A stretch of DNA of 64,000 nt from an uncultured Actinomycetes bacterium (GCA_963706025.1 CAVPLM010000005.1:1-64000); one strand, 5' to 3'; shown: positions 4,702 through 52,687, numbered from the stretch's first letter. Numbers and translations: made by a program. The notes: generated by a model from the sequence alone, not told the origin.

Positions 4702-4725
4702 CGGCAATACTCATAGGGTCTGAAT

Positions 4726-4756
4726 CGGGGGACTGCCCTGCAACGGCAGTCCCCCG
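4726..4756 (+). terminator. Stem-loop after dctM
   Basis: CGGGGGACTGCC-N7-GGCAGTCCCCCG. Confidence 0.6.
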
Positions 4757-4933
4757 TGATGGACGCGCTCAACTCGCCCCGAGCATCGGCCGTATGCTCC
4801 CGGGTTCAGGGTCGCCTTTCTGCCCTTCAGGCTGTGTCCGGTCATCTTCACGTTGTCGGCCGTTCTGATAGCCCTGGGGGCCTGGCTCTGACCAGCGCGA
4901 GGCCGGCGCTAAGGCAGGGTTCAGGGCAAGGGC

Positions 4934-5332
4934 TCAAGGCAGGGTTGCGAAGCCTTCCTGGCGGAAGTGCTCGTCGGTGGCGATGGCGGCCTCTATTCTC
5001 AGTCGCCGCATCATCACGAAGCTCAGGCAATCGGTGAGAGTGTACGTCTTGTGTGGGCGCTCGAGGAAGAGCGCCCAGGCCCGCAGCTCCTCGGTCGCGT
5101 CGGGGTGCTCCACCCTCACCTCCGCCGCCGAACGGATGTGCGAACCTGCTCTGGCCGCCGTCTCGTGGTCGCTTCGGGTCAGAAGCAGGGCGACAAGCTC
5201 GTCGAGCACATAGGTGCTGGTCACGAAGACTGCATCTGGCTGCCGCATGAGCCGCACTATCTCCTTGTGCTTGGGGGAACCCGCGAACAGGAGGTCGTAC
5301 CAGCCGGAAGTATCGACGAACAGAGGCCTCAT
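4934..5332 (-). CDS. vapC: VapC PIN-domain toxin
   Basis: FVDTS, VLDE, TDCLSF and ATDEHF acidic PIN motifs. Confidence 0.92.
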   Translation of the reverse strand: MRPLFVDTSGWYDLLFAGSPKHKEIVRLMRQPDAVFVTSTYVLDELVALLLTRSDHETAARAGSHIRSAAEVRVEHPDATEELRAWALFLERPHKTYTLTDCLSFVMMRRLRIEAAIATDEHFRQEGFATLP

Positions 5333-36647: not shown

Positions 36648-36704
36648 TCTTCATTCCTCCCGTCTTCCCTTCAAAGTCGCAGGAGTTTAGCATAGCCCTT
36701 GCTC

Positions 36705-38387
36705 ATGGGCAATGACACGAAGAGACATCTTGCGACCGCGGCTGCCTTCCTGGTACTGGCGACCGCCGGTTCCCGGGTGCTGGGTCTGATCCGGGAGATC
36801 GTCATGGTCTCCTATCTAGGCTTGGGCGACGAGATGGGAGCCTTCACCGTCGCGAACAAGGTACCCAGCCTGATCCGCACCCTCCTGGCCGACACCGCTC
36901 TCTCCGCCGCCTTCATCCCCGTCTTCTCCGCTCTGTTGGAGAAGGGGCGCAACCGGGAGGCCTGGCAGGTGGCCTACACCGTGACCGTGCTCGCCACTGC
37001 CGTCCTGGGAGTGATCACCGTCCTGGGGATGGTTTTCGCGCCGCAAGTGGTCAAAGTGGTGGCCCCCGGATTCAGCGACAATCCGGACATCGTCGCCCTC
37101 ACCGTGCACTTGATGCGCCTGATGTTTCCCACAGTAGTGATCCTGGGGATCGCGGGCGTCTTCATGGGCATCCTCAACTCCTACAACCACTTCACCCTGC
37201 CGGCGTTGGCTCCCATCGTCTGGAACCTGGTGATCATCGGAGTGGTGGTCGCGTTCTCGGCCGGATACGGGGTCGAAGCTCTTGCGTGGGGGGTGCTCAT
37301 CGGGACGATCGTGGAGCTGCTGATGCAGATACCGGCGGTGTGGCGGAGGCGGTGGCGGCCGGCCGCCACCGCCGCGCCTGGAGGCACCGGCGTCGGAGCC
37401 GGCGCCGGCGACGCGCCCGCACCCGAGCCCGAGGGCTCCCCCTACCGGCTCGCCCTGCGCAGTCCCGAGGTGCGCCGGGTGGGCATCCTCATCGGTCCGG
37501 TGATCCTCAGCCTCGGCATCATCAACTTCAACGCCTTCATCGGGACCGTCATAGCGACTCTCATCAGCATCCCGTCTCCAGCCATCATCGAGAGGGCGTT
37601 CCGCCTGTTCCAATTGCCTCAAGGGGTTTTCGCGATCGCCATCGGCACGGTGCTGTTCCCTGCATTCTCGCGCCACGCGGCTGCCAAACGAATGGCGGAG
37701 TTTCGCGAAGACCTGTCTACCGGCATACGCCAGATCTTCTTCATGACCCTGCCTTTCGCGGCCTTCTTCTCGGTCCTGGCGGTCCCGACGGTGCGACTTA
37801 TCTACGAGCACGGCAAGGTCACGAGCAGCGATACCGAGTTGGTGGCCTCCGCCTTACTCTTCTTCAGCGTGGGCATGGCCTTCGTCAGCGTTAACACTCT
37901 GCTCAACCGGGCCTTCTACAGCATCCAGAAGCCCTGGGTGCCCCTGATCGTCGGAGTAGCGAACCTGGCGCTGAACGCGGCGCTAATGCTGCTGCTTTAC
38001 AAACCCATGGGCGTCGGCGGGATCACACTGGCCACCTCCCTGGTGAGCCTGTTCAACTTTTTCGGTCTCATGGTGCTGCTTAGCCCACGCATCGGAGGGG
38101 TAGACGCACGCCGGGTGGCCTGGTCGGCTACCCGATCGATCGTGGCCCTCATCCCCCTGGCGGCGGTTGCCTATTGGGTGTGGTGGGGGTTGGACGCCGT
38201 CCTGGGTCGTGACCTCTGGGCGCAGATCCTTTCGGTGGGTCTGGCCTACCTGGCCGGCGCCGCCGCCTATTGTCTGGCCGCCTGGTTGATGCGCATGCCC
38301 GAACTGCGCGACGTGTTGAAAGTGATCCGCCGCCGGCGCGAGCCCCGCTCCACGGACGAGGTGATCGACCTCGAGGGCGGCGGCTAG
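36705..38387 (+). CDS. murJ: Lipid II flippase MurJ
   Basis: SRVLGLIRE, SAAFIPVF and RLFQLP.G motifs. Confidence 0.93.
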   Translation: MGNDTKRHLATAAAFLVLATAGSRVLGLIREIVMVSYLGLGDEMGAFTVANKVPSLIRTLLADTALSAAFIPVFSALLEKGRNREAWQVAYTVTVLATAVLGVITVLGMVFAPQVVKVVAPGFSDNPDIVALTVHLMRLMFPTVVILGIAGVFMGILNSYNHFTLPALAPIVWNLVIIGVVVAFSAGYGVEALAWGVLIGTIVELLMQIPAVWRRRWRPAATAAPGGTGVGAGAGDAPAPEPEGSPYRLALRSPEVRRVGILIGPVILSLGIINFNAFIGTVIATLISIPSPAIIERAFRLFQLPQGVFAIAIGTVLFPAFSRHAAAKRMAEFREDLSTGIRQIFFMTLPFAAFFSVLAVPTVRLIYEHGKVTSSDTELVASALLFFSVGMAFVSVNTLLNRAFYSIQKPWVPLIVGVANLALNAALMLLLYKPMGVGGITLATSLVSLFNFFGLMVLLSPRIGGVDARRVAWSATRSIVALIPLAAVAYWVWWGLDAVLGRDLWAQILSVGLAYLAGAAAYCLAAWLMRMPELRDVLKVIRRRREPRSTDEVIDLEGGG

Positions 38388-39158: not shown

Positions 39159-39441
39159 CCGGACGGCGGGCGGACCAGGCCGGACCCACTTCGCCTTGCG
39201 GGTCGTCTCGAAGGCATAGGCGTAGCCGACGTAGTCTCTACACGGCCGCAGTGCGTACGTGGACCTCCTGGTGCGTCCGCAAGCAAGATGGCCCCCGGTT
39301 CGGCCGCCGGCGCAGAGGTAGGCAGTGGTCGCGATTTCGAATACGTCCGTGACTTCTCCTGTCGCCTGCATCGCTGATGGCAGGTGGCCCTGGCCTGCGA
39401 GGCAGCCATTCTTGTGCGTCGATCGACCGCATCCGGTGCGG

Positions 39442-39861
39442 CTAGAGTGCGCGCATCCGGTTGTTTTTAGGGTTGTGTTCGACCTCGGCGAGACCGAGCG
39501 CCTCCAGAAGCGGGGGCATGTACATCCCGAACCGGCCGCGCAGACCCTTCTTGAGCCCGTACCAGCCACCGACGGGGTTGTCTGCAGAGCGGCCCCACGC
39601 CTCGACGGTTCCCTCAGCGGCAGGCTTCTGCTCATCAGCGCTCCCGAGAGGTACCCAGTCGCCGCGCTCCTTGAGCATCGCGTGGAGATCCTCGATGGCG
39701 CGCAACCGATAGCTGAGCACCGTCTTGCCGACGACGCACACCAGGGCGGGCGGGTCGGCGGTCTCGTCGCGGTACATCTGATATTCCGACGACCCGCTCG
39801 GTGTCTTGAGAACCCAGGGATCCTCACGACTGCCGGAGCCGCTCAAACTCGTTGCCCCCAT
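39442..39861 (-). CDS. Conserved hypothetical protein (DUF6855-like)
   Basis: DPW.LKTP, NPVGGWYGLKKG.RGRFG and AEVEHNPKNNRMRA; GGAGG RBS. Confidence 0.75.
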   Translation of the reverse strand: MGATSLSGSGSREDPWVLKTPSGSSEYQMYRDETADPPALVCVVGKTVLSYRLRAIEDLHAMLKERGDWVPLGSADEQKPAAEGTVEAWGRSADNPVGGWYGLKKGLRGRFGMYMPPLLEALGLAEVEHNPKNNRMRAL

Positions 39862-39933
39862 ATCTCGACCTCCACCGGTAGGGCGCATTGACACTCCGCG
39901 AATCTGCCGCCTCTATACCCGCCGGAGCGTCTC

Positions 39934-39955
39934 GCCTAACGCGAGAATCAGCGAC
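39934..39955 (-). other. attC right-half remnant
   Basis: Minus strand CGCTGATTCTCGC-GTTAGGC upstream of the DUF6855-like gene. Confidence 0.45.
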
Positions 39956-40159
39956 GGTTGTAGGACGGGGCCCGTCCGCTCCGCGGCACGATCACGGCAG
40001 CACTCTCTTCTCTCGGGGCGCGTTCTGCATAGCCACGATCCTGCGCCAAGTGGTGTCGTCGCCGGACAGAACAAGGCCGTAGTGCTCTCGAACATCGACC
40101 GCGACGGCGCGTAGGGCGGCATTCGCGGTGCCGGAACGGCGTGCCCCCGAAGGCTCCAC

Positions 40160-40900
40160 CTACGGACTCGGAGGAAGGTGGAATAGTTGGGTCACTAGCG
40201 GGCCATAGATCAGCCCCCAGAACAAGCGGATTACCAGGGCCAAGACGAAGCCGATAAGCCAGAAGAAGGGTATCGAGTGCCGTTGAGTACGAAGGGGCTC
40301 TTTCCATAGCCGTTCCTCATCGATGAATAGTAAGGGAAGGGCAATGAAGCTGGCATAAGCAATCGTATAGTATGCGACTACCAAGGGAGAAAGCCAGAAC
40401 AGGGGCGAGAGGAGCACGGAGGTCAGCACCCCGGTGAAGATGAGACCTTCGGTAAGGCTCTTCCCGCCGGCAAAGAAGAACACCTCCCGAAACGAGGCCT
40501 GGGTCTTCCTGATGACGAAGTACGAGACGAGGGCAATCGGAATGTAGTCGCCTTGTGCCAGGATGAAGGAAGGCAGGGTCTCAGCGTGTAGACCGCCGAT
40601 ACCTTCCCCAGTGACCGTCAGACTGACTTCGAACAGCATACCGAAGAGCCAAACAAGGAAGACGTACGCAAGCGGCGCGAGGCTCCTCGGGATGGGTATC
40701 TTCTTCCTGAGATCGTATTTCGCGTTCGCCCACATCCCTGCGAGCATCAAACCGTACAGAGCAATCTCCGAAAACCAGTAGGGCGACCTGGGCTCGGGAG
40801 TACCGCCGATGTTCAGAGCCGCGAAGAGTATGCCGGCAGCCATCCAGATCCATACGTTCCATATGCCGCGTCCGTAGAGCTGTGATGATCTCGATCCCAT
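40160..40900 (-). CDS. Hypothetical multi-pass membrane protein (cassette gene)
   Basis: Many hydrophobic segments; starts about 55 nt after an attC R' site. Confidence 0.7.
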   Translation of the reverse strand: MGSRSSQLYGRGIWNVWIWMAAGILFAALNIGGTPEPRSPYWFSEIALYGLMLAGMWANAKYDLRKKIPIPRSLAPLAYVFLVWLFGMLFEVSLTVTGEGIGGLHAETLPSFILAQGDYIPIALVSYFVIRKTQASFREVFFFAGGKSLTEGLIFTGVLTSVLLSPLFWLSPLVVAYYTIAYASFIALPLLFIDEERLWKEPLRTQRHSIPFFWLIGFVLALVIRLFWGLIYGPLVTQLFHLPPSP

Positions 40901-40954
40901 GGGGAGTCTCCCGAGGCGGCCTCAGGTGGCTTCGCCTGTTACGACGCCTGCGCC

Positions 40955-41018
40955 GCCCAACGAATCAGCTCAGCGGCGCGGCGCTGTCTGCCGCGTTCGC
41001 CGGAGCGCTGAGCTGGGC
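40955..41018 (-). other. attC site (R'' mutated to GCCCAGC)
   Basis: Minus strand GCCCAGCTCAGCGCTCCGGCGAACGCGGC...CGCGCCGCTGAGCTGATTCGTTGGGC, 64-bp imperfect palindrome. Confidence 0.75.
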
Positions 41019-41452
41019 CCCTTCGCGTTGGTATCTGGGAGGCGGCGGAGACCACGCATCGAATGCCTTCGCAGCTGCCGAAGAGGCAACAGATCGCGGG
41101 ACAGGTGAAGAGCGCCGTCGTCCAGGTATCGCACCATACAGACCGCCGTGGATGGACAGAGGGAGCGGAACTCGGCTGTACCTCGCACTCCGGTCGGTAC
41201 GCTCTCGCGCAAACAGACCGAGTATCCTCGGTGCCCGAAGAACTCTTTCGCTGTATCGTTTCCGAGCAATTCAACCCCGGCCGTCCCAACAAGCGCGTGC
41301 CCATCCCGGGCCAGCAGAAAATGCTCGATGTGTTCGCCAACGTCTTCATCGGGGAGACCATTTGCCGACAAGAGTTCTCGTACCATCGGGAGTTCATCTC
41401 GGCCGGCCATGGAGAAGGTGATTCCGTCCGATGGTGTTGATGTCTCGATCAT
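40970..41452 (-). pseudogene. ArsN2-like GNAT acetyltransferase with internal deletion
   Basis: LL.ANGLP.ED and EFRSLCPSTAVCM present, but the acetyl-CoA-binding LRS.AV..RG.G segment is missing. Confidence 0.7.
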
Positions 41453-41469
41453 GTGATCTCCAGCGTCAT

Positions 41470-41513
41470 TCGCGGCCCGGCAGGGACATCGCGCCTGCAG
41501 CGAATCCTTATGC
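41470..41513 (-). other. attC left-half remnant at the PhzF stop
   Basis: Minus strand GCATAAG-GATTCGCTGCAGGCGCGA overlapping the stop codon. Confidence 0.45.
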
Positions 41514-42293
41514 TTCGAACGTGATTTCGGCTTCCATGAAAGTGCAGGCCTGACCGTACAATAGAACCCGATCCCCTCTCAATTCGCATTGGATAGAACC
41601 ACCTCGCTTAGAAACCTGCAGAGCACTGAGCATAGATCGATTGAGACGCCCTGCCCAATACGGCGCGAGCTGGCAATGTGCGGCTCCGGTCACTGGGTCT
41701 TCATCAACTCCGAGTTTCGGGGCGAAGAAGCGGCTCACAAAGTCGACACTATTCCCTGGCGCGGTGATGATGACTCCGCGCAAATCAAGTTGCCGAAGCA
41801 AGGACATCTCAGGCGTGATGTTTCGCACGACTTCTTCGCTCGAGAACACGAGCAGATAATCGTCTGCGGCGAGCGTTTCCACGGGCGTAGCCCCAAAGGC
41901 CCTCAGTAGCGCCGGCGGTGGATCACAAGGCACCGGCCTGCGTCCGGGGAAGTCCATCTCAAGGTCCGAGCCGGAGCGTCTGACCGAGAGCACTCCGCTC
42001 CTGGTGAAGAACGAAATGCTGTCGGCTGTGTGGTTCAGGTGAGAGAAGAGGACATGTGCAGAGGCAAGGGTTGCATGCCCACAGAGGTCGACCTCCGAGA
42101 CCGGAGTGAACCACCGTAGTTCATACCCCTCGGCAACAGGCACGAAGAAAGCCGTTTCTGACAGATTGTTCTCTTCGGCAATAGCCTGAAGTAAGGAATC
42201 CGACAGCCACGCGGCCAAGGGAACCACGGCGGCGGGGTTTCCCGCGAAAGCACGCGAGGAGAATGCATCAATCTGATACTGCTTCAGTTTCAT
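41508..42293 (-). CDS. PhzF-family isomerase (cassette gene)
   Basis: DAF...GNPA, LSETAF, EVDLCGHATL and EDPVTG motifs. Confidence 0.93.
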   Translation of the reverse strand: MKLKQYQIDAFSSRAFAGNPAAVVPLAAWLSDSLLQAIAEENNLSETAFFVPVAEGYELRWFTPVSEVDLCGHATLASAHVLFSHLNHTADSISFFTRSGVLSVRRSGSDLEMDFPGRRPVPCDPPPALLRAFGATPVETLAADDYLLVFSSEEVVRNITPEMSLLRQLDLRGVIITAPGNSVDFVSRFFAPKLGVDEDPVTGAAHCQLAPYWAGRLNRSMLSALQVSKRGGSIQCELRGDRVLLYGQACTFMEAEITFEA

Positions 42294-42312
42294 GGAACAC
42301 CGGCGACTTGAG

Positions 42313-42340
42313 ATCTAACGTTGGGAACGCGGGCGGCGAA
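42313..42340 (-). other. attC right-half remnant
   Basis: Minus strand GCCGCCCGCGTTCCCAAC-GTTAGAT, 19 nt before the PhzF ATG. Confidence 0.55.
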
Positions 42341-42354
42341 GCCATCTTCGAAGA

Positions 42355-42430
42355 TCACAATCTTGTCGGGATTGACCTTCATCTCACCGAGCGAGACGAC
42401 GTCTTCCGAGAACTCCACTCGACGCGGCAT
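42355..42430 (-). pseudogene. Phd/YefM antitoxin N-terminal fragment
   Basis: MPRRVEFSEDVVSLGEMKVNP with GGAGG RBS, then breaks off. Confidence 0.45.
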
Positions 42431-42525
42431 GGCAGCCTCCAAGCAGCACGTGAGAACTGGTGCCGGTTGTATCACCTGATGACTCTGGGAGCAACACCTC
42501 TGACAATCATTCTGCGGCACACTCA

Positions 42526-42650
42526 CTAGAGAAACCGTTCCACCACGATTTCGTCGATGTCCCGGTCCGCGACCCTGAGGTGGCGCTCGGCGACGCCCTG
42601 GCGGCGATACGCGGCGGCCACGTAGGTGCCGAGGATGCCGACGTGGTCGA
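42526..42650 (-). pseudogene. GNAT acetyltransferase fragment
   Basis: DHVGILGTYVAAAYRRQGVA (motif A) spliced to the C-terminal IDEIVVERFL. Confidence 0.55.
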
Positions 42651-42664
42651 CGCTCTTGTTCGGC
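42643..42664 (-). other. attC left-half remnant after the VOC gene
   Basis: Minus strand GCCGAAC-AAGAGCGTCGACCAC, nearly identical to the left arm of attC 43307-43384. Confidence 0.65.
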
Positions 42665-42667
42665 TGA

Positions 42668-43066
42668 TCATTCCTTGTAGTACTGCTTGAACTCCTCTGC
42701 GGGTTCCCGGTCTGAATAGATGTAGAGCATGACTCCGTTCGGGTCGAGAATGGCGAATCCGCGATCACCCCACGGATGATCTGCAAGCAGCATGACAGGT
42801 GTAAGGCCGCTGGCAGTCATACGGTCGCACTCGGCATCTACGTCTTCCACACAGAAGTTGTACATCAGGCCTGCCGGATTGAACGCCGGAGGGCCTTGCT
42901 CCTGCGGGGCTATAAACTGCAGTTCTGATGTCTCCTTTCCGAATCGGAGGTTCACGTACCACCCGCAATCGAACGTGACCTTGGCTCCGAAATACTTCAC
43001 GTAGAAATCGCACGACTCCTCCACCTTCGCCGTCGTGATGCATGCAGACAGTGTGTGTGCGATCAT
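42668..43066 (-). CDS. VOC/glyoxalase family protein (cassette gene)
   Basis: DFY...FG, F.VEDVDA and PWGDRGFAILDPNG motifs. Confidence 0.92.
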   Translation of the reverse strand: MIAHTLSACITTAKVEESCDFYVKYFGAKVTFDCGWYVNLRFGKETSELQFIAPQEQGPPAFNPAGLMYNFCVEDVDAECDRMTASGLTPVMLLADHPWGDRGFAILDPNGVMLYIYSDREPAEEFKQYYKE

Positions 43067-43296
43067 CAGTCCTTCTCCTCTTCCAGTTTGTGCAATTGCC
43101 TGATGTGTGAACCTGCATGTATCTTCTCCAAGTCGTCCAAAAAATGAGTATTGATGTGACGCACTGTGTGCCCTTCGCCTTCAAGGACCTGGTGCTGATC
43201 ATCCAGTTCCGCTCTCGATCCCCTTTGAAGTAGCAGAGTGCATTCCACTTCACGTCGCCCCATCATGCACTCAATTACTTCTGGATTAGGCCCCAT
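43066..43296 (-). CDS. Small hypothetical protein or remnant
   Basis: AGGAG RBS right after attC R'; stop overlaps the VOC ATG. Confidence 0.45.
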   Translation of the reverse strand: MGPNPEVIECMMGRREVECTLLLQRGSRAELDDQHQVLEGEGHTVRHINTHFLDDLEKIHAGSHIRQLHKLEEEKD

Positions 43297-43306
43297 TGTC
43301 TCTCCT

Positions 43307-43384
43307 GCCTAACGTCGAGCTTGATCCTCATTTAATCCGGCATCCACGCCGGACGAAACGTAGTGGTCAACGCTCTTTTTATGC
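43307..43384 (-). other. attC site (R'' GCATAAA contains the DUF3795 stop)
   Basis: GAGC[G]TTGA pairs with TCAAGCTC leaving an extrahelical base; internal TCCGGC/GCCGGA stem; ends GTTAGGC. Confidence 0.75.
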
Positions 43385-43777
43385 ATTTCTTGACACCCCG
43401 CAATTCAGACACGTGGGTCTGTGTACACAAATCAGTTCTCCACAAGCTGTACATTGCCAGCGGGCGTTTTCATTCCTGACGAACTGTCTGATTCCCACTT
43501 CCTCTATCTGCATCAGGTTCTCAATCATACTCATGCCGTATTTATCTCGATATCTCTTATCAAGGTTCTTTAATCGTGAACAGGGAAAGGAATCGCAGGA
43601 ATGATCGCAGTATTTCCATTTGCGCTTGTCACAGAATCTCAAAGTACACTTCCTGCTGCATTGAGTGTTGGGGGTGAGGCAGCCATCGCATTTGTTTCTA
43701 TCACGAACAAATCCTATGCAAAGGCGGCAGTTCATTCCGCAAGGAGCTATGTCGGATACCTTGGTGCGTGTTGTCAT
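43379..43777 (-). CDS. Cys-rich DUF3795-like protein (AT-rich cassette gene)
   Basis: IAPCGMNC..C, C..FPC, SMIENL..I and C..CG motifs; flanked by attC sites. Confidence 0.85.
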   Translation of the reverse strand: MTTRTKVSDIAPCGMNCRLCIGFVRDRNKCDGCLTPNTQCSRKCTLRFCDKRKWKYCDHSCDSFPCSRLKNLDKRYRDKYGMSMIENLMQIEEVGIRQFVRNENARWQCTACGELICVHRPTCLNCGVSRNA

Positions 43778-43800
43778 TGAGTGTAGTACCTAAGTTCTGT

Positions 43801-43864
43801 GCCTAACGTTCAAGGTGAGGAGGGCGCCGCTTTCGGCGCGTCCCTCTCGATCGAAATGTTAGAA
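43801..43864 (-). other. Intact-looking attC site
   Basis: Minus strand TTCTAAC-ATTTCGATCGAGAGGGACGCGCCGAAAGCGGCGCCCTCCTCACCTTGAAC-GTTAGGC: RYYYAAC-like and GTTRRRY cores, 64 bp. Confidence 0.88.
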
Positions 43865-43892
43865 GGCAAATTGCCGAGCAGGGACCATTTGC

Positions 43893-44078
43893 CTCGTGAC
43901 CACGCAGACGCTCTACCACCTCGGTCGTGACTGGTATGGGACGCGGATGGACCTCGATTGGCAACCGGCGACCGAGACCGAAGCGACAGACATGTTCGCG
44001 AAGCACGGGCTGGTCGGGGATTTTTGGTCGCTGGTTTAGGAGGTGCCACCGAGCACTTCGAGCGAACGCGCAGACGGT
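43893..44078 (+). repeat. 186-bp inverted repeat, left copy (duplicated merB-like 3' end)
   Basis: Reverse complement of 46693-46878. Confidence 0.95.
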
Positions 44079-44158
44079 CGTCCCTCTGGAAGGCATCCTC
44101 GCGCAACTATCCGTGTCCGTCGGTAGTATCATGGGCAGTACTCTAGGAGGTACCATAG

Positions 44159-44340
44159 ATGAGCAGATTCCCCGCTATCGTCCCCATCTCGGACTTGCGT
44201 CAGGATGCGGCGGGCGTCATCAAGCGGGCGGCGCTCTCAGGGGAGCTGGTGTTCATCACCCAGCGGGGGCGACCGGCTGCCGTCATAGTGGACGCCCAGA
44301 CCTATGAGCGCACGCAACGCCAGTACGAGCCGATTCGTGG
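44159..44340 (+). pseudogene. Truncated Phd/YefM antitoxin, paralog of 47937-48212
   Basis: IVPISDLRQDA..VFITQRGR; shares upstream AGGAGGTACCAT; no toxin follows. Confidence 0.7.
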
Positions 44341-44363
44341 TATGGCCGGCCAAGGGTGGGCTA

Positions 44364-44520
44364 CAAGCGAACTCCGGGAATGCAGTGTTCGAGTCCGGGC
44401 TTGGCGCCTTCGAGCTGACACGACTCATCGAAGAAGAGCTCGAGCGGGCGTTTGGCGAGAAGATCCCTTCGCTGGTCAAGACGTCGACTGAGATGATCGA
44501 GATCGCGGAGACGGTCAAGA
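44364..44520 (+). pseudogene. DUF1697-like fragment
   Basis: NSGNAVFES..LIEEELERAFGEKIPSLVKT. Confidence 0.5.
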
Positions 44521-44678
44521 GAACCGCCGGCTCAAGCTACATCTCGCCGCCCACCTGTCCAAGTGATCGGGTCCAATCCGGTCGTGAACCGACTCTAGAG
44601 CTCCACTCGATACACTACTGCGGATACGCTTAGCGTATCCTTTGTTACACTTGAAAGGCTGCGACGCGTCGACGGGAG

Positions 44679-45134
44679 GTGCGCATGGAACGTGACCCCG
44701 GAACCGAACTGAGTATCACACAGGCGCAGTTCCGCTTCGCCAAGGCGCTCGCCGAGATCCTCGTCTACATCGTCGTGCTCAACCTGTTCGCTGAGTTCGT
44801 GCACGCCGTAGTCATTGAGTCGTTCTCGGTCTCGCTCGTGACGGCGGTACTTCTGTGGCTGATGCTCCGTGCAACCGTGCGCCTTGAGCGCCGAATCGCA
44901 GACTACTTCCGCGAAAGGAAAGGGGTCGTGCCGCGCGTCCTGCGGTACCTGTGCGCCTGGGCGATCCTCTTCGTTAGCAAGTTCGTGATCCTCGAGGTGG
45001 TCGTATTGGTCACCGCCGGACGCGCGGCGCTCGGCCACTTCTTCGAGATCGTCGCCATCGTCGTGGCGTTGCTGGCGGCGGAGGCTGCGCTGGCCTGGGT
45101 CTACAAGAGGCTCGGCAACCGTCCGAGCGGATGA
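44679..45134 (+). CDS. Hypothetical four-TM membrane protein
   Basis: GGAGG RBS; hydrophobic segments; LFVSKFVILE. Confidence 0.7.
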   Translation: MRMERDPGTELSITQAQFRFAKALAEILVYIVVLNLFAEFVHAVVIESFSVSLVTAVLLWLMLRATVRLERRIADYFRERKGVVPRVLRYLCAWAILFVSKFVILEVVVLVTAGRAALGHFFEIVAIVVALLAAEAALAWVYKRLGNRPSG

Positions 45135-45278
45135 TCCTGAAGTTCTGGGTCCGCTGTCATCGACCGGCAAAGGTCGTTGTGTCAGTGGTCAGTCTGGTCC
45201 GATACGGGTGGTCAGTCCGTGGCCCAGGGCGGCCACTATACCTTGCATATTCACCACATCGTGCGTAAAATGCTCGCC

Positions 45279-46538
45279 ATGAAGCAGGACTTCCTTGCCC
45301 GTCATGCGACCGAAACCGTGCTGCAACGTCTTCAAGTCTTCCGCGTCGTGGTCGTCACCGGGGCGCGCCAGGTGGGCAAGTCGACGCTTGCGCGGCTGGT
45401 GGTCGAGCAGCTCGGTGGGTCGTACCTCACACTCGACGACCCGCTGACGCTGTCCCAGGCCGCGGGAGATGCCGATGGTCTGGTGGCTTCGACTACCGGC
45501 CTGACGGTGATCGACGAGGTCCAGCGGGTTCCCGACGTGCTGCGGGCGGTCAAGCTCTCGGTCGACCGCGACCCGACGCCCGGCCGCTTTCTGCTCACAG
45601 GCTCGGCGAACCTGCTGGGCATGCGGGCGGTCACGGAGTCGCTGGCGGGCCGGGCGGTGTACCTCGACCTGCTCCCTCTCTCGTGGTCGGAGTCGGTGGG
45701 CGGGACGCGACCCCACACTATCGACCAGGCGTTCTCCGCCCAATCGGCCGATGAGTTCGCCGCATCGTTGCCGGCCGCCGGTCCCGGCGCGGGTGAGGAC
45801 GCGCGCCGGCGGGCGCTGTGCGGCGGGATGCCGGAGGCCTTTCGCCTTGACGCGGACAGCCGTCGCGCCTGGTACGACAGCTACCGGCGCACCTTCCTCG
45901 AACGCGATCTGCGACAGCTCTCGGACATCAGCCGCGTACCGGAGTTCGGTCGCGTCCTGAGTCTCGCTCTGCTCCGGAGCGGGGGGCTGCTCAACAAGAG
46001 CGATATCGCCGCCGACGCTCAGGTGTCGCACTCCACGGTCGATCGGTACCTCAACCTCCTCCAGGTGGCCTACCAGATCTGGCTGCTACAGCCGTTCTTC
46101 CCCAACGTCACCAAACGACTGGTGAAGGCGCCGAAGCTGTACGCGATCGACAGCGGCGCGGCCGCTTGGGCCGCGAATGCGTTCGACTGGCGCGCAGCCG
46201 TGGCGTCGGCCAAAGATGGCGCGCTTATGGAGACCTTCGCGCTTTCGGACGTCATGGCGTGGGACGGGCTCTCGGGCGCGTCTCGATATCATTTCTGGCG
46301 GACGGGAGCCGGCGCTGAGGTCGACCTGGTGATCGAGCGTGGTGAAGCTGTCGTGGCGATAGAGGTCAAGAGCGCGGTGACTCTTACACGCCACGACGCC
46401 AGTGGTCTGCGTGCGCTCCGCGCCGACCTGGGTGGTCGCTTCCGGCTCGGCATCATCGCGTACCTCGGTCAGGACGTCCGGGTGGTCGATCAGACGATCG
46501 TGGCCGTGCCGCTGGCCTCGCTGCTTGGGGCGACCTGA
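45279..46538 (+). CDS. AAA ATPase with DUF4143 and PD-(D/E)xK-like C-terminus
   Basis: GARQVGKST, IDEVQ, LTGS, ESLAGR, K.PKLY..DSG and EVD..EVK motifs. Confidence 0.92.
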   Translation: MKQDFLARHATETVLQRLQVFRVVVVTGARQVGKSTLARLVVEQLGGSYLTLDDPLTLSQAAGDADGLVASTTGLTVIDEVQRVPDVLRAVKLSVDRDPTPGRFLLTGSANLLGMRAVTESLAGRAVYLDLLPLSWSESVGGTRPHTIDQAFSAQSADEFAASLPAAGPGAGEDARRRALCGGMPEAFRLDADSRRAWYDSYRRTFLERDLRQLSDISRVPEFGRVLSLALLRSGGLLNKSDIAADAQVSHSTVDRYLNLLQVAYQIWLLQPFFPNVTKRLVKAPKLYAIDSGAAAWAANAFDWRAAVASAKDGALMETFALSDVMAWDGLSGASRYHFWRTGAGAEVDLVIERGEAVVAIEVKSAVTLTRHDASGLRALRADLGGRFRLGIIAYLGQDVRVVDQTIVAVPLASLLGAT

Positions 46539-46554
46539 GGGCGAGTTCAGGCGA

Positions 46555-46703
46555 AGAGCTCCGCCGCCGAGCTCGCCGGCGATGTTTCCGTCGACCCAGC
46601 TGCCCGGACCGATGAGGAACACGCTCGCTGGCTCCTCGCCGAGATGCTCGAGTGGCACTGGCGCGAGCAGAAGGTGGTCTTCTGGGAGTACTACCGTCTG
46701 CGC
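46555..46703 (+). pseudogene. Internal fragment of TM0106-family nuclease/helicase
   Basis: DPAARTDEEHARWLLAEMLEWHWREQKVVFWEYYRL. Confidence 0.6.
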
Positions 46704-46878
46704 GTTCGCTCGAAGTGCTCGGTGGCACCTCCTAAACCAGCGACCAAAAATCCCCGACCAGCCCGTGCTTCGCGAACATGTCTGTCGCTTCGGTCTCGGT
46801 CGCCGGTTGCCAATCGAGGTCCATCCGCGTCCCATACCAGTCACGACCGAGGTGGTAGAGCGTCTGCGTGGTCACGAG
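46693..46878 (-). repeat. 186-bp inverted repeat, right copy
   Basis: Reverse complement of 43893-44078. Confidence 0.95.
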
Positions 46879-47391
46879 CGCACCGAGGCTCAGTCCTTCT
46901 GCATCCAGCCACGAGAACACGTCTGCTTCCGACCGGAACGCCGTCATGTTCGCTCAAGTGAAGACGATGTCGTCCCAGAACTGCTTCGCGGGAACGAGGA
47001 AGTGCACGATGGCGTCGCCTTCGGCCACCCCATCGCGCACCGTAAGCGTGATCGGCTCGCCGGTCGCCGGTGAATGCGTGTGGAGCGTGCCGTCGCCAAG
47101 AATCGCGAGGATCGACAGACCGTCCCACACGCAGTTGGCGAACCACGTTCGCTCGCCGATGGTGACAAGGAAATCCGAGTCGATACCCGAGAACGGATGC
47201 GCCATTCTCACGCGATCGGTGCCAGGAACTAGCACGAGGCGATGCTCGTCTGCCAATGAGTGAAGCGCCGCCGAGGCGTGGGACTCCGCCACACCGAGCA
47301 TGTCGCCGATGGCGGCGGCCGTCGGTGCCTGTCCGGTGTCGCGAAGCGTCTGGATCACGGTCGCCCGCACCTGCCGCTCGAACGAGTCCAT
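46732..47391 (-). CDS. MerB-like organomercurial lyase, putative selenoprotein (in-frame TGA at 46954-46956)
   Basis: HTH N-terminus, MAHPFS, NCVWD, then WDDIVFT-[TGA]-ANMTAFRSE in one frame (219 aa); SECIS-like hairpin follows. Confidence 0.8.
46915..46951 (-). promoter_or_regulatory. Candidate bacterial SECIS element
   Basis: GAACATG/CGTGTTC lower stem, TTCC/GGAA upper stem, GGTC apical loop starting 20 nt after UGA. Confidence 0.6.
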
Positions 47392-47548
47392 ATGGTCTGC
47401 TCCTCCGAATCGGTCGACGGCAATGGTGCTAACAATACTTCGACAGTCTGCCGGAATCCGCCTTGAAATGACCCAAAAGCGTTTTCGTCGCGACTCCTCA
47501 GCCGCCTTTCCAGGGCTCGGGAGCGTCGAGACGCGCCCGGTGTGTGAT

Positions 47549-47637
47549 GCAGTTGAGCAGCAAGCTGCAGCCCGCTGCGAGTGGATCAGAGCGTAACGCG
47601 GAGGCCGTGGTTTGTCTGCTCGAACTGCTTGTTAGGC
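47549..47637 (-). other. attC-like site lacking R'
   Basis: Minus strand GCCTAAC (contains toxin stop), GCAGTT[C]GAGCAG pairs with CTGCTCAACTGC; no GTT core afterwards. Confidence 0.7.
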
Positions 47638-47940
47638 GTCGCCGGCTTCGGCTGGCTCATCAGGAATCTGCGCCCCATGCCATGCCGCCACGACCCAGAC
47701 TGTGTTGCCCTTGACACGGTAGAAGAAGCGGTACGGGTCGACAATGACTTCGCGGAACTGGAGATCAGGGAACTCGCGAACCACGCGACCCGACTCGGGG
47801 AATTCCGCGAGCCGGGCAAGTACGGTATTCACTCTCTGCTGGAATGCCCGGGCTGCGGACGGTCTGTCTGCGCGGACATAGGCGAGAGCCGCCAGGAACT
47901 GGATCCGGGCCGGCGGCGTGAACTGGACCCTCAGGGTCAC
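47632..47940 (-). CDS. RelE/ParE-family toxin
   Basis: LAEFPESGR..REV..PYRFFY..WHG motifs. Confidence 0.9.
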   Translation of the reverse strand: MTLRVQFTPPARIQFLAALAYVRADRPSAARAFQQRVNTVLARLAEFPESGRVVREFPDLQFREVIVDPYRFFYRVKGNTVWVVAAWHGAQIPDEPAEAGDA

Positions 47941-48212
47941 GACTCGCCCAGAAGCGCCTCGGCCTCCGCCATCACGGTCTCCAGGTCGTAGCCCACGCCG
48001 GCCTCGATGTCGGCCTCACCGCGCGCGAGCAGGCGCAGGATCTCGAAGTTGTGCTGGCTGCGCTCGTAGGCGCCCGCGCTGACCAGGACCGCAACAGCAC
48101 GCCCGCGCTGCGTGATGAACACCGGTTCACCGGAAGCAGATGCCCGCTTCAGGATGGCCGAAGCATCCTGACGCAGCTCGCTGATTGGGACGATGTTGGG
48201 GACTGTACTCAT
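47937..48212 (-). CDS. Phd/YefM antitoxin
   Basis: PISELRQ..PVFITQRGRAVAVL; 4-nt overlap with the toxin. Confidence 0.9.
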   Translation of the reverse strand: MSTVPNIVPISELRQDASAILKRASASGEPVFITQRGRAVAVLVSAGAYERSQHNFEILRLLARGEADIEAGVGYDLETVMAEAEALLGES

Positions 48213-48254
48213 CAATGGTACCTCCTTCACTAGCGTTCATTGTACCACTGATGA

Positions 48255-48580
48255 ACCTACGCAGCGCTGCAGGCTCGTTGAGCATCTCCTGAAACCGCAA
48301 CCGGAGTTCCTCGAACGTTCTCTCGAGCGGATCGGCCGCCGGGACTGCCCGCGGAGCACGAACAACAGCGAAAAGGCCGTACCCGTGGTGCCCTCCGAAG
48401 GTGCCGAGGAGCCGTGCGAATCCACTGGGCATGAAGCTCAAGGTGCTGGAGATGGGGCGAGAGGTGGCGAGCGGCTAGCGTGTCGAGCGTCCGCTTGAAG
48501 GCAGGACATCGGCTTCGTGGATCGCAAGACCTCCGATGACGAAGTGGTCATCGGGATTGCTCGGCTCGAACGCCATGGCC
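48255..48580 (-). pseudogene. DUF3800-like remnant (frameshifted and deleted)
   Basis: HFVIGGLAIHE, LELHAQWIR and DPLERTFEEL..RF found in different frames. Confidence 0.5.
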
Positions 48581-48748
48581 CACGAAGTCGACAACGTTCT
48601 CTCCTTGCGTGTCTGGTTCTCGGTTCAGTCTACCGGCGCGTCGAAGGCCCAACCATAGGTCGTTAGTTGCAGGTGGACGATTGGCACTTCTCAGGGCTGC
48701 GCGCTTCGAATCGAGGCCCGAAAGGTGCGGTTGCCGTCCTTGACACTC

Positions 48749-49845
48749 TCACCCGGCCTGGATCTCCTCCGCCATCTCCAGAAACCGGCAGAACGCATTG
48801 GCCAGCTGCATCTGGCGGGGCGTGCGGCAATCGACCTCGAAGAGACGCGGGCTTGCCACCAGGATGCAGGTCGCCCGCGCCCGCGAGGTGGCCACGTTCA
48901 GGCGGTTGAGGCTGTAGAGGAACTCCATGCCCCGGGGGGCCAGTTCGGGCGAGGAAGTCGCCAGCGAGAAGACGACCACCGGCGCTTCCTGCCCCTGGAA
49001 CCTGTCCACGGTGCCGACACGATGGCCCGGAAGACGAGTGGTCACATCGGCCACCTGGGCGTTGTAGGGGCAGACGATGAGCACCTGCTGGGCGTCCAGC
49101 GCACTCTCCTCGCCCTGGGCGTCGACCCAGAGCACGCCGTCCGTCAGCGATTCCACCGGCCGGCCGACGGCCTCCACCTCTTCGGGGGAGGAGTTCTGGT
49201 TGCCCTCGTGCTCCACAGGCAGGAACCAGAGCCCCGCGCCTGCAAGGGGCGTCGGCCCCCGCAGAGCCTGGTTCTCGAAACCCGGTCTCGACTCCAGCCG
49301 GCCCTCGCAGAAGAGCTCGGAGGTGAAGAGACAGATATCGGGATGCAGACGCCAGGTCTCGTCGAGAAAGAGTCCGCGATCGTCGGCGATGGTCTGACGG
49401 CCCTGAAGCAGGTGCTCGAGGGCCGACACTTCCGTGCCCTCGGGATGGCTGCCTTGTTGTGGTTGCTCCAGCTGCTGAGGGTCGCCGAGGAGGACGATGC
49501 TCTGTGCCGCCTGAGCGACCGCAATGACGTTCGCGAGCGACATCTGCCCGGCTTCGTCCACGAAGAGCACGTCCACGGCATCGCGGAAGTCAGGACGCGC
49601 CCACACCCAGGCAGTGCCGGCCGCCACCTGAGCCTGGCCAACGGCGACGCACTCGAGAAGGACGGCGTTGTCGGTCAGCTCGAGTATCTCCCGGTAGGTG
49701 TCCTCCGGATCGCCTTTGACCTTCTGGGCGCAGCACAGTTCGACTCCTTCGTCCGCCAGCCGGGCGATAGCGTTGATGTCATCGACGGTGCCGAACTTGC
49801 CTTCCACCCAATGAAGATCGGCCTCGTCGCGAAGCTCAGAATCCT
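48749..49845 (-). pseudogene. C-terminal SF1 helicase part of a TM0106-family protein
   Basis: GTAW, FVDEAGQ, GDPQQL, TWRLHP, PYNAQV, GTVDRFQGQE and RLNVATSRA motifs; Walker A and N-terminus missing. Confidence 0.8.
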
Positions 49846-49859
49846 GGGGTGGGTAGCTG

Positions 49860-49937
49860 TAGCGGCAGAGCGGCGAGGACGAGCCTGGCGCGCATGCTCG
49901 GACAACGCGCGAAGTCGGCTGCACGCGCTTGTTCGAA
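49860..49937 (-). other. attC left-half remnant after the ParE toxin
   Basis: Minus strand TTCGAAC-AAGCGCGTGCAGCCGAC, 12 nt after the stop. Confidence 0.5.
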
Positions 49938-49949
49938 CTACACTCGCGA

Positions 49950-50246
49950 TTATCGGCGGCCACGCCAGTAGTAGGGTCGCTTCCGCTGATGCGCCACGGC
50001 CAGAATCCTAAGGGAGTTTTCACGAGTCTCGTAGATGAGGCTGTACGGGAACTTGGCGAGCACGAGCTTGCGAACGTCGTTAGTGACTTGCAGGGCAGCT
50101 CCGGGGTACTGCCGGATGCGCGCGAATCCGGTATCAACCTCATCTGTGAAGATCAATCCAAGACCAGGGCTCTCGCGCTCGTAGTAGTCGACGGCGTCAT
50201 TGAACTCACGACGAGCGTCAGGGTGAACCTGCAGCACCCGCGTCAC
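49950..50246 (-). CDS. RelE/ParE-family toxin
   Basis: HPDARRE..DYYE, FPYSLIY and ILAVAH.RKRP.YW motifs. Confidence 0.9.
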   Translation of the reverse strand: MTRVLQVHPDARREFNDAVDYYERESPGLGLIFTDEVDTGFARIRQYPGAALQVTNDVRKLVLAKFPYSLIYETRENSLRILAVAHQRKRPYYWRGRR

Positions 50247-50467
50247 TTGAGGCGAGCCCTAGCCTCAGCGATGACCTGATCCGCTGGAATGGTCTCAACG
50301 AGGCCGGCATCGATCTCCGCGCTGCGGCGTAGCACCTCTTCGACCCACAACTGCTCGACCTCAGCCTCCGAGAGGGACTCAAGGCTGCTCAGGAGTTCGT
50401 GAGCCATGGAAGCACGATCCCTGGCACTGAGCATGAGGGCTTCGCGCATCAGTTCGTCAACGGTCAT
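50243..50467 (-). CDS. Addiction module antitoxin (TIGR02574-like)
   Basis: ALMLS..DRA..A..LL.SL, W.EEV.RR and G.VETIP patterns. Confidence 0.88.
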
Positions 50468-50716
50468 ATCACACCTCGCAAACGCCGGAATGCTCTCGCC
50501 GATATTGTACCTCGCGCATCTGACGCCGAACCCCTACCGAGTGTTGGTGCGAACAACCATTATCCGGTCTGCCGAACCCCACCGATGCAGCGCCTGGGTG
50601 TCTTCGTGGCGCCGGCTCCAGCTTCCCCCGGAAAGGGGCGGAAAGCGCTGGGAACCGCACGACGCTATGTCCCGCCCCGACCGTCGTTCGACAATAAACA
50701 GACTGTATATGCAGCC

Positions 50717-50812
50717 CTACAGAGCGTCAAGCGGGCTAGGGACAACCTGTCCGCCCCGGTTGAGCACATGGGTGTAGATCATGGTGGTACGCACATCGTT
50801 GTGGCCCAGCAG
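50717..50812 (-). pseudogene. intI: Integron integrase IntI C-terminal remnant
   Basis: [31 protein letters not shown]: box II H and catalytic Y plus the IntI-type [18 protein letters not shown] tail. Confidence 0.85.
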
Positions 50813-50866
50813 TCGCCCCGTCGCCAGGCGGCGCGATCCGCCCCGTGCGCTAGAATACGTCCCCTC

Positions 50867-52687
50867 ATGGGACGCTTCGACCACATCCGCAACTTCTCCA
50901 TCATCGCCCACATCGACCATGGGAAATCCACCCTGGCCGACCGCATCCTGCAGATCACCAACACGGTGGCCGAGCGGGAGATGCGGGAGCAGGTGCTCGA
51001 CCGCATGGACCTGGAGCGTGAGCGGGGCATCACCATCAAGGCCCAAGCCGTCCGCATCTACTACCACGCCGAGGACGGCCGGGAGTATCAGTTCAACCTC
51101 ATCGACACCCCGGGCCACGTGGACTTCAGCTACGAGGTGTCCCGGAGCCTGGCCGCCTGCGAGGGAGCCATCCTGGTGGTAGACGCCACCCAAGGCGTGG
51201 AGGCGCAAACCCTGGCCAATGCTCTCCTTGCCCTCGAGAACGACCTGGAGATAGTCCCGGTGCTCAACAAGATCGACCTGCCCGGCGCCGAGCCGGAGAA
51301 GCGGGCGGAGGAGATCGCCAGCGTCATCGGCTGTCCGCGTTCCGACATCCTCCATATCTCGGCCAAGACCGGTGAAGGCGTGCCGGCGGTGCTCGAGGCG
51401 TTGGTGCATCGGATCCCGCCGCCTCAGGGCGACGCCGATGGGCCCCCGCGGGCGCTCATCTTCGATTCGGTCTACGACCAGTATCGGGGCGTCGTGGCCT
51501 TCGTGCGCGTGCGCGACGGGAGCTTCCGCAAGGACGATCCGTTGCTGGCTATGGTCACGCGGCGCCGCAGTGACATAGAAGAGGTGGGCATCTTCAGCCC
51601 CGATATGCTCAAGACCGACATTCTGCACGCCGGCGAGGTGGGCTACATCATCCCCGGCATCAAAGAAGTAGCCGATCTGCGGGTGGGCGACACCCTCACC
51701 CATGCCCAGCGGGCCGCCGCCGAGCCCCTTCCCGGCTACCGCGAAGTCACTCCCATGGTGTTCTGCGGCCTATTCCCCATCGACGGCGAGGATTACCCCG
51801 ATCTGCGCGACGCTCTGGAGAAGCTCAAGCTCAACGATGCCTCCCTCTTCTACGAGCCGGAGACGTCCAAGGCGCTGGGCTTCGGTTTCCGCTGCGGGTT
51901 CCTGGGCCTGCTGCACATGGAGATCGTCCGGGAGCGCCTGACGCGGGAGTTCGGTCTCGACCTGCTCGCCACCACCCCCAACGTGCGCTACGAGATCGAG
52001 CTGCTCACGGGAGAGGTGCTTTCCATAAGCAATCCCGTGGATTTCCCCGAATCCGGTGACATCAAGGAGGTGCGCGAGCCCTACATCGCCGCCACCATCT
52101 TGGTGCCCGCGGAATTCGTGGGTCCGGTGATGGAGCTGTGCAACGACAAGCGCGGGCGCTTCGCCCACATGGAGTACCTGACCTCCGATCGGGTACGTCT
52201 CGATTACGATCTGCCCCTGGCGGAGATCGTGCTCGACTTCTTCGACCTGCTCAAGACCCGCAGCCGCGGCTACGCCAGTCTCGATTACGAGCTCAAGGAC
52301 TTCGAGCCGGGCGACCTGGTGCGTCTCGACATCCGCATTGCCGGCGAGATCGTCGACGCCCTCAGCCTTATCGTGCACGCCGACCGCGCTTACGCCATCG
52401 GGCGGGGGCTGGCCGAGCGGCTACGCAAGAAGATCCCCCGGCAGATGTTCGAGGTGGCCATACAGGCGGCGGTGGGAAGTCGGATCATCGCCCGGGAGAG
52501 CGTGGCCCCTTTGCGCAAGGACGTGCTGGCCAAGTGCTACGGGGGCGACATCACCCGCAAGCGCAAGCTGCTGGAGAAGCAGAAAGCCGGCAAGAAGCGC
52601 ATGAAGATGGTGGGGACGGTGGAGATCCCTCAGGAGGCTTTCCTGGCGGTCCTCGATCTGGGCGAAGGGAAAGAGGGGAAGAGATGA
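50867..52687 (+). CDS. lepA: Elongation factor 4
   Basis: [24 protein letters not shown] and [14 protein letters not shown] motifs. Confidence 0.98.

Follow-up and report, generated by a model that had tools for sequence, protein, structure and literature searches.

Clusters of attC sites lacking integron-integrases (CALIN) are the closest described counterparts of the element analysed here. In the part of Cury et al. 2016 (PMC4889954) available to us, 15 of 279 CALIN have an IntI C-terminal pseudogene within 10 kb, and the inverted integrase group, which includes that of the Treponema chromosomal integrons, is paraphyletic. That chromosomal integrons can lose their integrase function has been described, as the accessible text of Nemergut et al. 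2008 (PMC2426708) shows. As far as the available portions of Cury et al. 2016 and Neron 2022 go, complete integrons are absent from Actinobacteria in finished-genome surveys, and the accessible text of a 2026 study of permafrost metagenome-assembled genomes (MAGs) reports a virtual absence of integrons in Actinomycetota. We analysed a 64,000-nucleotide stretch of DNA from an uncultured Actinomycetes bacterium (GCA_963706025.1 CAVPLM010000005.1:1-64000; hereafter, the window), in which an island lies between murJ and lepA. With a probability of about 0.87, this island is an eroding, inactivated, inverted sedentary chromosomal integron. It belongs to a known class of elements, namely CALIN accompanied by an intI pseudogene, here in inverted layout. 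A preliminary description, made from the sequence alone, had read the island as an eroding inverted integron without its integrase, and this reading is supported by an IntI-type remnant, an attI-like region, attC sites on the same strand and synteny of the flanks.

The remnant lies 54 nt upstream of lepA (start at 50867), where the preliminary description had placed it, and it is of IntI rather than Xer type, as claimed. Among NCBIfam models, it matches TIGR02249 at 46.4 bits (E 3.4e-12) and PRK15417 at 31.2 bits, compared with 20.7 bits for the best Xer-type model, and it retains the box II His, the catalytic Tyr region and the IntI-type tail. It does not make a complete integron, as the match covers only TIGR02249 positions 284–315 at 42–46 bits, against a cut-off of 265 bits. 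A six-frame search of the genome of the window returned 13 TIGR02249 matches, of which only one, on contig C3, exceeds this cut-off. The C3 intI spans model positions 101–315 and is without the N-terminal SAM-like domain present in the full-length IntI of a relative (G016). No intact integrase was found by this search of the 92%-complete MAG, and both intI copies are truncated.

The setting is chromosomal. The 64 kb of the window make up the start of contig C5 (1.2 Mb), which belongs to a MAG (G000) of 3.66 Mb and 30 contigs, with a completeness of 92% and a contamination of 7.3%. Its LepA is 96, 90, 89 and 80% identical to those of four MAGs labelled uncultured Actinomycetes, actinobacterium or Actinomycetota by their depositors; beyond these, identities are at most 68% among the 80 loci retained of 588 confirmed. 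Both flanks are syntenic with those MAGs (31–38.4 kb and 50.85–56 kb of the window align at 65–86% nucleotide identity). From the LepA identities and flank alignments, and by the labels of the depositors, the host is actinobacterial, in agreement with the preliminary description. Judged from these alignments, the island is embedded in a syntenic chromosome segment; its GC content is 0.51–0.59 at 40–44 kb, compared with approximately 0.65 in the flanks.

Full-length intI genes occur in related genomes. Of 61 genomes in the same GTDB family, that of the window included, 20 have TIGR02249 matches at E ≤ 1e-30; 11 of the 61 exceed the cut-off and 7 have full-length copies. In an even sample of the phylum, a match was found in 36 of 401 genomes and a score above the cut-off in 24 of 401, across several families (family and phylum counts include the genome of the window and two unpublished genomes). 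An earlier sample of 16 genomes from other families of the class gave no IntI. IntI is thus not as rare in uncultured Actinomycetota as the preliminary description and the literature imply. We examined seven intI loci with 15–20 kb on each side. On the 3′ side of the full-length intI (+) of G016 runs a long succession of imperfect palindromes of approximately 93 nt with AAC...GTT cores, and five further genomes (G005, G006, G008, G021 and G023) have similar, more diverse sites, always 3′ of intI. The 5′ flanks of the integrons of relatives align with core regions of the genome of the window at 68–80% identity, so these integrons are chromosomal and belong to the same lineage.

To build family-specific attC models, we aligned 19 seed sites from five relatives, none of them from the window, under an assigned structure with a 7-bp R helix, spacers of 1 nt and 5 nt, and a 14-bp L helix with three bulges in its 5′ arm. 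Paired cells make up 83.8% of this alignment, compared with 71.6% after shuffling and 28–35% when the partners are slid; in 14 of 21 pairs both partners change, and the observed values were reached in none of 500 shuffles. A covariance model from the 19 seeds (R1) found 61 matches at E ≤ 1 in 347 kb of intI and lepA loci, many of them non-seed sites at 18–50 bits, and a second model (R2) was refined from 53 R1 matches. Fifty-nine of the 61 R1 matches lie 3′ of intI on its strand; the other two lie 5′ of the C3 intI, on the opposite strand. R1 found no attC at E ≤ 1 in the lepA loci of five relatives (L009–L013). In G016, 27 co-directional, near-uniform matches span L105 1651–18704, where some cassettes are duplicated (for example, 2093–2731 and 4560–5198), so that this Actinomycetota MAG contains what is, by the usual definition, a large and complete integron of the inverted type. 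The assignment of the attC top strand rests on the direction of open reading frames (ORFs), as 10 of 14 inter-attC ORFs in G016, picked by eye from a mechanical list, are co-directional with intI, and on the known asymmetry of attC sites. The supported sites of the window likewise lie downstream of the remnant on its strand. The inverted layout proposed earlier recurs, in the same order, in genomes of the family with full-length IntI.

With filters off, R1 gave 40 matches in the window at E ≤ 10, and the top three all lie on the minus strand in the region: 43801–43864 (23.0 bits, E 7.8e-4), 40955–41001 (13.3 bits) and 47535–47637 (12.7 bits). R2 gave 30 matches; its top five are likewise confined to the minus strand, at positions 40955–49937. 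When R2 was run with default filters on the window and 80 lepA loci (1.44 Mb), 43801–43864 was the top match. The 1.38 Mb of controls held four matches of at least 15.0 bits, none above 17.5, whereas the 11.6-kb region held three of at least 15 bits (22.5, 16.2 and 15.0), against approximately 0.03 expected from the control rate. Across the genome, the best R1 match is C3:455173–455232(+), 2.2 kb 3′ of the C3 intI, and the second is 43801–43864 (150 of 2,994 candidates scored). By these family-specific models, three minus-strand sites separated by gaps of 2.8 and 3.7 kb form a CALIN (at least two attC sites on one strand).

Approximately 11 attC-like elements had been claimed, of which about four have statistical support. 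The intact site at 43801–43864 was confirmed, at 23.0 and 22.5 bits. The half-site at 49937 also stood: 49935–49911(−) is the best match to a hidden Markov model (HMM) of the R″–L″ half-site in the 3.66-Mb genome (nhmmer, E 6.9e-4, 22.3 bits), with just 11.6 bits for the full R2 model at 49855–49937. At 47637, an attC remnant is present, but it proved to be a full-length site without its GTT core rather than merely a half; it scores 16.2 bits with default filters, ranks third among half-site matches genome-wide (47637–47613(−)) and overlaps the stop codon of a ParE gene with its R″. The site at 40955–41018 is, as described, a full site with a mutated R″ (hairpin −19.2 kcal/mol, z −1.63), but its support is marginal. 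The claimed site at 43307–43384 folds as a single hairpin but has no R1 or R2 match at E ≤ 10. The proposed half at 42664 falls inside the noise, although by eye 42589–42664 resembles the 5′ end of 43307–43384. The halves at 39934 and 42313 are bare GTTAGRY cores with no attC model match; four of the six occurrences of this motif in the window are on the minus strand at 39934–43807, each 10–45 nt before a start codon. Neither the half at 41513 nor the collapsed element at 48647–48668 has a model match, and they fold no better than chance. The sites of the window fold as single hairpins with modest z scores (−1.6 to −2.0). Two sites are individually significant and one is marginal.

Other candidates were set aside. 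An R2 match at 45830–45915(−) (11.7 bits), antisense within an ATPase gene, was regarded as noise. A rule-based scan for AAC...GTT with folding did not discriminate in high-GC DNA, giving many intragenic matches on both strands, and was therefore restricted to picking seeds in relatives. Rfam at E ≤ 10 gave three unrelated weak matches and no attC family in 36–54 kb.

The state of these sites bears on whether the array could still function as a store of cassettes, with an intact IntI, missing from the assembly of the 92%-complete MAG, acting on it in trans. One attC is intact, the attI region is preserved, and seven genomes of the family have a full-length IntI. However, 43801–43864 is the single site that keeps both the AAC and the GTT core, its neighbours are halves or have lost one of the two, and the two intI copies found are both truncated; we regard a working reservoir as improbable.

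The array begins with a region that is conserved behind intI. We aligned 215 nt past the stop codon from the window, the C3 copy, G002, G005, G006, G008, G016 and G021. The common blocks are a motif abutting the stop codon, ACAGAC (CAGAC-type repeats) in the interior and, approximately 150 nt downstream, a distal GCAGAC-GGATAAT-TTGTT, which finishes in the usual core of a cassette boundary (TTGTT at 50556–50552 and GTT at 50554–50552 in the window). The element at 50571 that had been listed as an attC half belongs to this conserved block instead. From its position and conservation, we infer that the region acts as attI; attI sites have no general model. Logan contigs give zero cover over 50570–50677, within this stretch. 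A public Logan contig holds the first toxin–antitoxin (TA) unit, with 13 differences in 252 nt, and its match ends at 50551, beside the predicted crossover; this would fit a mobile cassette.

The remnant and the C3 copy differ very little. Window positions 50699–50812 match it at 97.4% over 114 nt (BLAST); the three differences are all synonymous and confined to the first 9 nt of the remnant, and 105 nt are identical (50699–50803 and G000:C3:452854–452958), an identity that ends 18 nt past the stop codon. The identical patch ends exactly at the conserved post-stop motif, beyond which the attI subtypes diverge: the window resembles G005, and C3 resembles G008 and G006. This pattern resembles the outcome of gene conversion or recombination at the motif, and the position of the end point hints at an exchange of integron heads and arrays among loci there. 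The C3 locus (G000:C3:452263–456800) is a second decayed integron in this genome, with a weak HEPN-domain ORF upstream of intI, a G008-like attI region after it, the attC match at 455173–455232 and a cassette (456166–456777) common to the G005 and G016 arrays.

The interval between murJ and lepA varies among relatives, as the preliminary description had suggested should be examined. The spacing in homologous loci ranges from 105 nt (L009) through approximately 420 nt (L012), approximately 1.0 kb (L011) and 5.3 kb (L010) to the 12.45 kb of the window, and this spot is a general hotspot for accessory DNA. In L011, from the closest relative (LepA 96%), lepA is immediately preceded by an IntI tail remnant of 11 residues, shorter than that of the window, and the post-stop motif; a single gene, for a membrane protein, comes after them. 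The L010 interval holds unrelated genes, including an HDAC-like gene, and neither IntI (tblastn) nor an attC match was found in it. From reading of the translations, L010 4660–9974 encodes rubrerythrin-like, PAS-GGDEF and HDAC-like proteins, a DNA methylase and a neighbouring ORF. A fragment of the HDAC-like gene, intact as an ORF in L010, survives at the murJ side of the island and has 87–89% matches in all three same-genus genomes. One of these, G002, carries a more degraded remnant with an attI copy elsewhere (L116, G002:C38:1430–1800), 72% identical to 50570–50804, with no lepA found within 1.4 kb on its 5′ side.

The copy on C3 raises the alternative that the island is a CALIN at a secondary site, into which the C3 integrase inserted cassettes and at which no integron platform was ever present. 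Such a route is named in the portion of Cury et al. 2016 (PMC4889954) that we could consult, and the near-identity of remnant and C3 copy would agree with it. However, the array is headed by an intI 3′ end with a complete attI-like region, and a remnant also occupies this site in the closest relative, so we consider this route very improbable.

Less probable still is a generic, TA-rich variable island whose hairpins would be repeats of another kind and whose intI piece would be there by chance: the variable murJ–lepA gap, the unrelated genes of L010 and the lack of model support for most claimed elements speak for it, but the model matches cluster on one strand, one half-site is the top match genome-wide, relatives share the attI layout, and homologues of the ParE/Phd pairs and of the DUF3795-like gene lie inside the arrays of G021, G016, G008 and G023. 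An assembly or binning chimera, in which the 105-nt repeat joined an integron fragment to the lepA contig of a MAG with 7.3% contamination, is just as implausible, as a single 1.2-Mb contig contains both flanks in synteny with relatives, the three differences from the C3 copy sit inside the remnant on the side of lepA, L011 has a junction of the same type, and short Logan contigs, drawn from three studies, link the remnant to the start of lepA (50759–50905, 50751–50916 and 50708–50856, with 1, 2 and 5 differences from the window; one of the runs may be the source sample).

For an eroding inverted integron, we propose the following course. A deletion would have removed all of intI but its last 31 codons and joined the stump to the lepA promoter region, and the attI-like region would have outlived this deletion. 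Behind it lie about ten putative cassette units, of which one alone is still bounded by an attC with both cores; the remaining sites show core mutations, exist as halves fused to truncated genes or are no longer recognisable, and a 2.6-kb block between 189-nt inverted repeats is rearranged. Because no intact integrase was found in the genome, the cassettes are presumably no longer excised or shuffled, and they would now evolve as ordinary chromosomal genes and pseudogenes. The TA pairs probably slow cassette loss, by analogy with cassettes of Vibrio arrays.

Several points weigh against this account. An intact intI may be unassembled, as the MAG is 92% complete and has 7.3% contamination. Six of the 11 claimed elements are unsupported by models, and the support for attC comes from family-specific models rather than that of IntegronFinder, with rough E-values. 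The genome-wide runs scored 150 of 2,994 candidates for R1 and 150 of 3,751 for R2; the R2 run returned neither 43801–43864 nor one of its training sites and was for that reason not used for ranking. A 3′ half-site HMM gave nothing significant genome-wide (best E 51). The cassette array is not shared with any of the three same-genus genomes, and the attI function and the effect of the TA pairs are deduced rather than observed.

Table 1. Features of the murJ–lepA island and its flanks (window coordinates)
Feature	Position	Strand	Basis
murJ, left conserved flank	36699–38387	+	Pfam MurJ 5.8e-100; synteny
HDAC-like gene fragment, old-flank marker	39184–39236	−	BLAST 88.7% over 53 nt versus L010
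DUF6855 gene, GTTAGGC core 39934–39940 ahead; last unit of the array	39442–39940	−	Pfam 7.7e-72
246-aa membrane protein, without family match	40160–40900	−	ORF and library scans
attC, R″ core AAC changed to AGC	40955–41018	−	R2 15.0 bits, E 0.13; R1 13.3
ArsN2-like acetyltransferase, apparently broken	40970–41452	−	NF040501 73.8 bits
PhzF-family gene, GTTAGAT core 42313–42319 ahead	41508–42319	−	Pfam 3.4e-57
Weak attC 5′ half right after VOC stop	42589–42664	−	R1 9.7, R2 8.3 bits (noise range)
76-aa ORF and VOC/glyoxalase-family gene	42668–43296	−	Pfam Glyoxalase 8.6e-14
Degenerate attC (probable), R′ GTTAGGC retained, R″ mutated	43307–43384	−	Hairpin, z −1.84
DUF3795-like Cys-rich cassette gene	43379–43777	−	Pfam, weak
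Intact attC, AAC and GTT cores, single hairpin	43801–43864	−	R1 23.0, R2 22.5 bits
Rearranged segment	43893–46878		BLAST 99.5% over 189 nt; Pfam
MerB-like gene, split: ORFs 46954–47391 and 46732–46947	46732–47391	−	Pfam MerB positions 1–80 of 126 on first ORF
attC, stem (R″–L″/L′) intact, R′ GTT core gone	47535–47637	−	R2 23.1 bits, E 0.0011
Phd/YefM–ParE TA cassette	47632–48230	−	Pfam
SF1 helicase fragment, 5′-truncated (AAA_12 and UvrD_C_2 only)	48749–49800 (upper bound approximate)	−	Pfam
attC 5′ half (R″–L″) fused to truncated helicase gene	49911–49937	−	Half-site HMM
Cassette 1, TA pair: Unstab_antitox 50243–50467, ParE-type 49950–50246	49950–50467	−	Pfam
attI-like region	50548–50716	−	Blocks common to G005, G006, G008, G021 and the C3 copy
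intI remnant, last 31 codons and stop	50717–50812	−	TIGR02249 positions 285–315, 46.4 bits
lepA, right conserved flank	50867–52687	+	LepA identity to relatives

The cargo of the array is listed in Table 1. Fifteen of the 18 ORFs accepted as genes are on the minus strand, as is the remnant, and the three plus-strand ORFs are confined between the 189-nt inverted repeats (43893–44081 and 46690–46878), which flank 2.6 kb with the only plus-strand genes of the island: a Phd fragment, a DUF1697 fragment, a membrane protein and an AAA_14/DUF4143 ATPase. The repeats copy the 3′ end of the second MerB-like ORF and approximately 42 nt more, and they end within an apparent R″–L″ half; inversion with duplication is a candidate mechanism. 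That second ORF has no family match. TA content amounts to three modules or remnants, and the Phd/YefM–ParE cassette has homologous pairs within the G016 and G008 arrays. Pfam matches to the helicase start at residue 168 of the mechanical ORF 48749–50143, and the match of the ArsN2-like gene to NF040501 falls into two stretches below the 125-bit cut-off. The DUF3795-like gene has a 46%-identical homologue in the G021 array and a paralogue at C5:206471–206869 (43% identity).

A match to the attC models (C5:207992–208055; R1 19.1, R2 20.1 bits) lies 1.1 kb from this paralogue, and C5:206471–208055 may be another cassette relic. Further strong R″–L″ half-site matches occur at C5:1150653 (E 0.018) and C5:1198730. 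A weak Rfam match to AsrC at 50883–50946(−), antisense to the 5′ end of lepA (22.4 bits; the gathering score is 111), most probably reflects either chance or the conserved coding sequence of the GTPase.

The locus itself is an ordinary end-state of an integron, and what is informative is its setting. Of greater interest is the presence of IntI and full arrays in this and other uncultured families of Actinomycetota, which weakens the claim that this particular locus is rare. We give an even chance to the broader proposal that native, long-resident inverted integrons, possessing an attI architecture and an attC family of their own, are common in this uncultured family and present in several other Actinomycetota lineages. 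If true, it would contradict the picture from cultured genomes of Actinobacteria without complete integrons, and the window would be one dying member. We found no description of such Actinomycetota integrons in the literature searched, the supplements of which could hold such records. For integron biology, the system offers a Gram-positive, high-GC lineage suited to studying why integrons persist or decay, and it supplies a defined attI and attC family for recombination tests.

The sedentary chromosomal integrons of Vibrio have the classical orientation, an intact IntI, far larger arrays and TA cassettes. The window resembles them in carrying a chromosomal array of cassettes mostly of unknown function with interspersed TA modules, and attC sites are alike within a Vibrio array, as are the 27 near-uniform sites of G016; by contrast, the array of the window is small, decaying and inverted. 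With the inverted integrons of Treponema, which belong to a different phylum, the likeness is in layout. With the degenerate integrons described in the accessible part of Nemergut et al. 2008 (PMC2426708), the window shares the loss of integrase function. It is closest to a CALIN with an intI pseudogene, as characterized in the available text of Cury et al. 2016 (PMC4889954), in having an attC cluster without a working integrase and a pseudogene nearby, but it also keeps an attI-like region and an inverted layout, in an Actinomycetota host.

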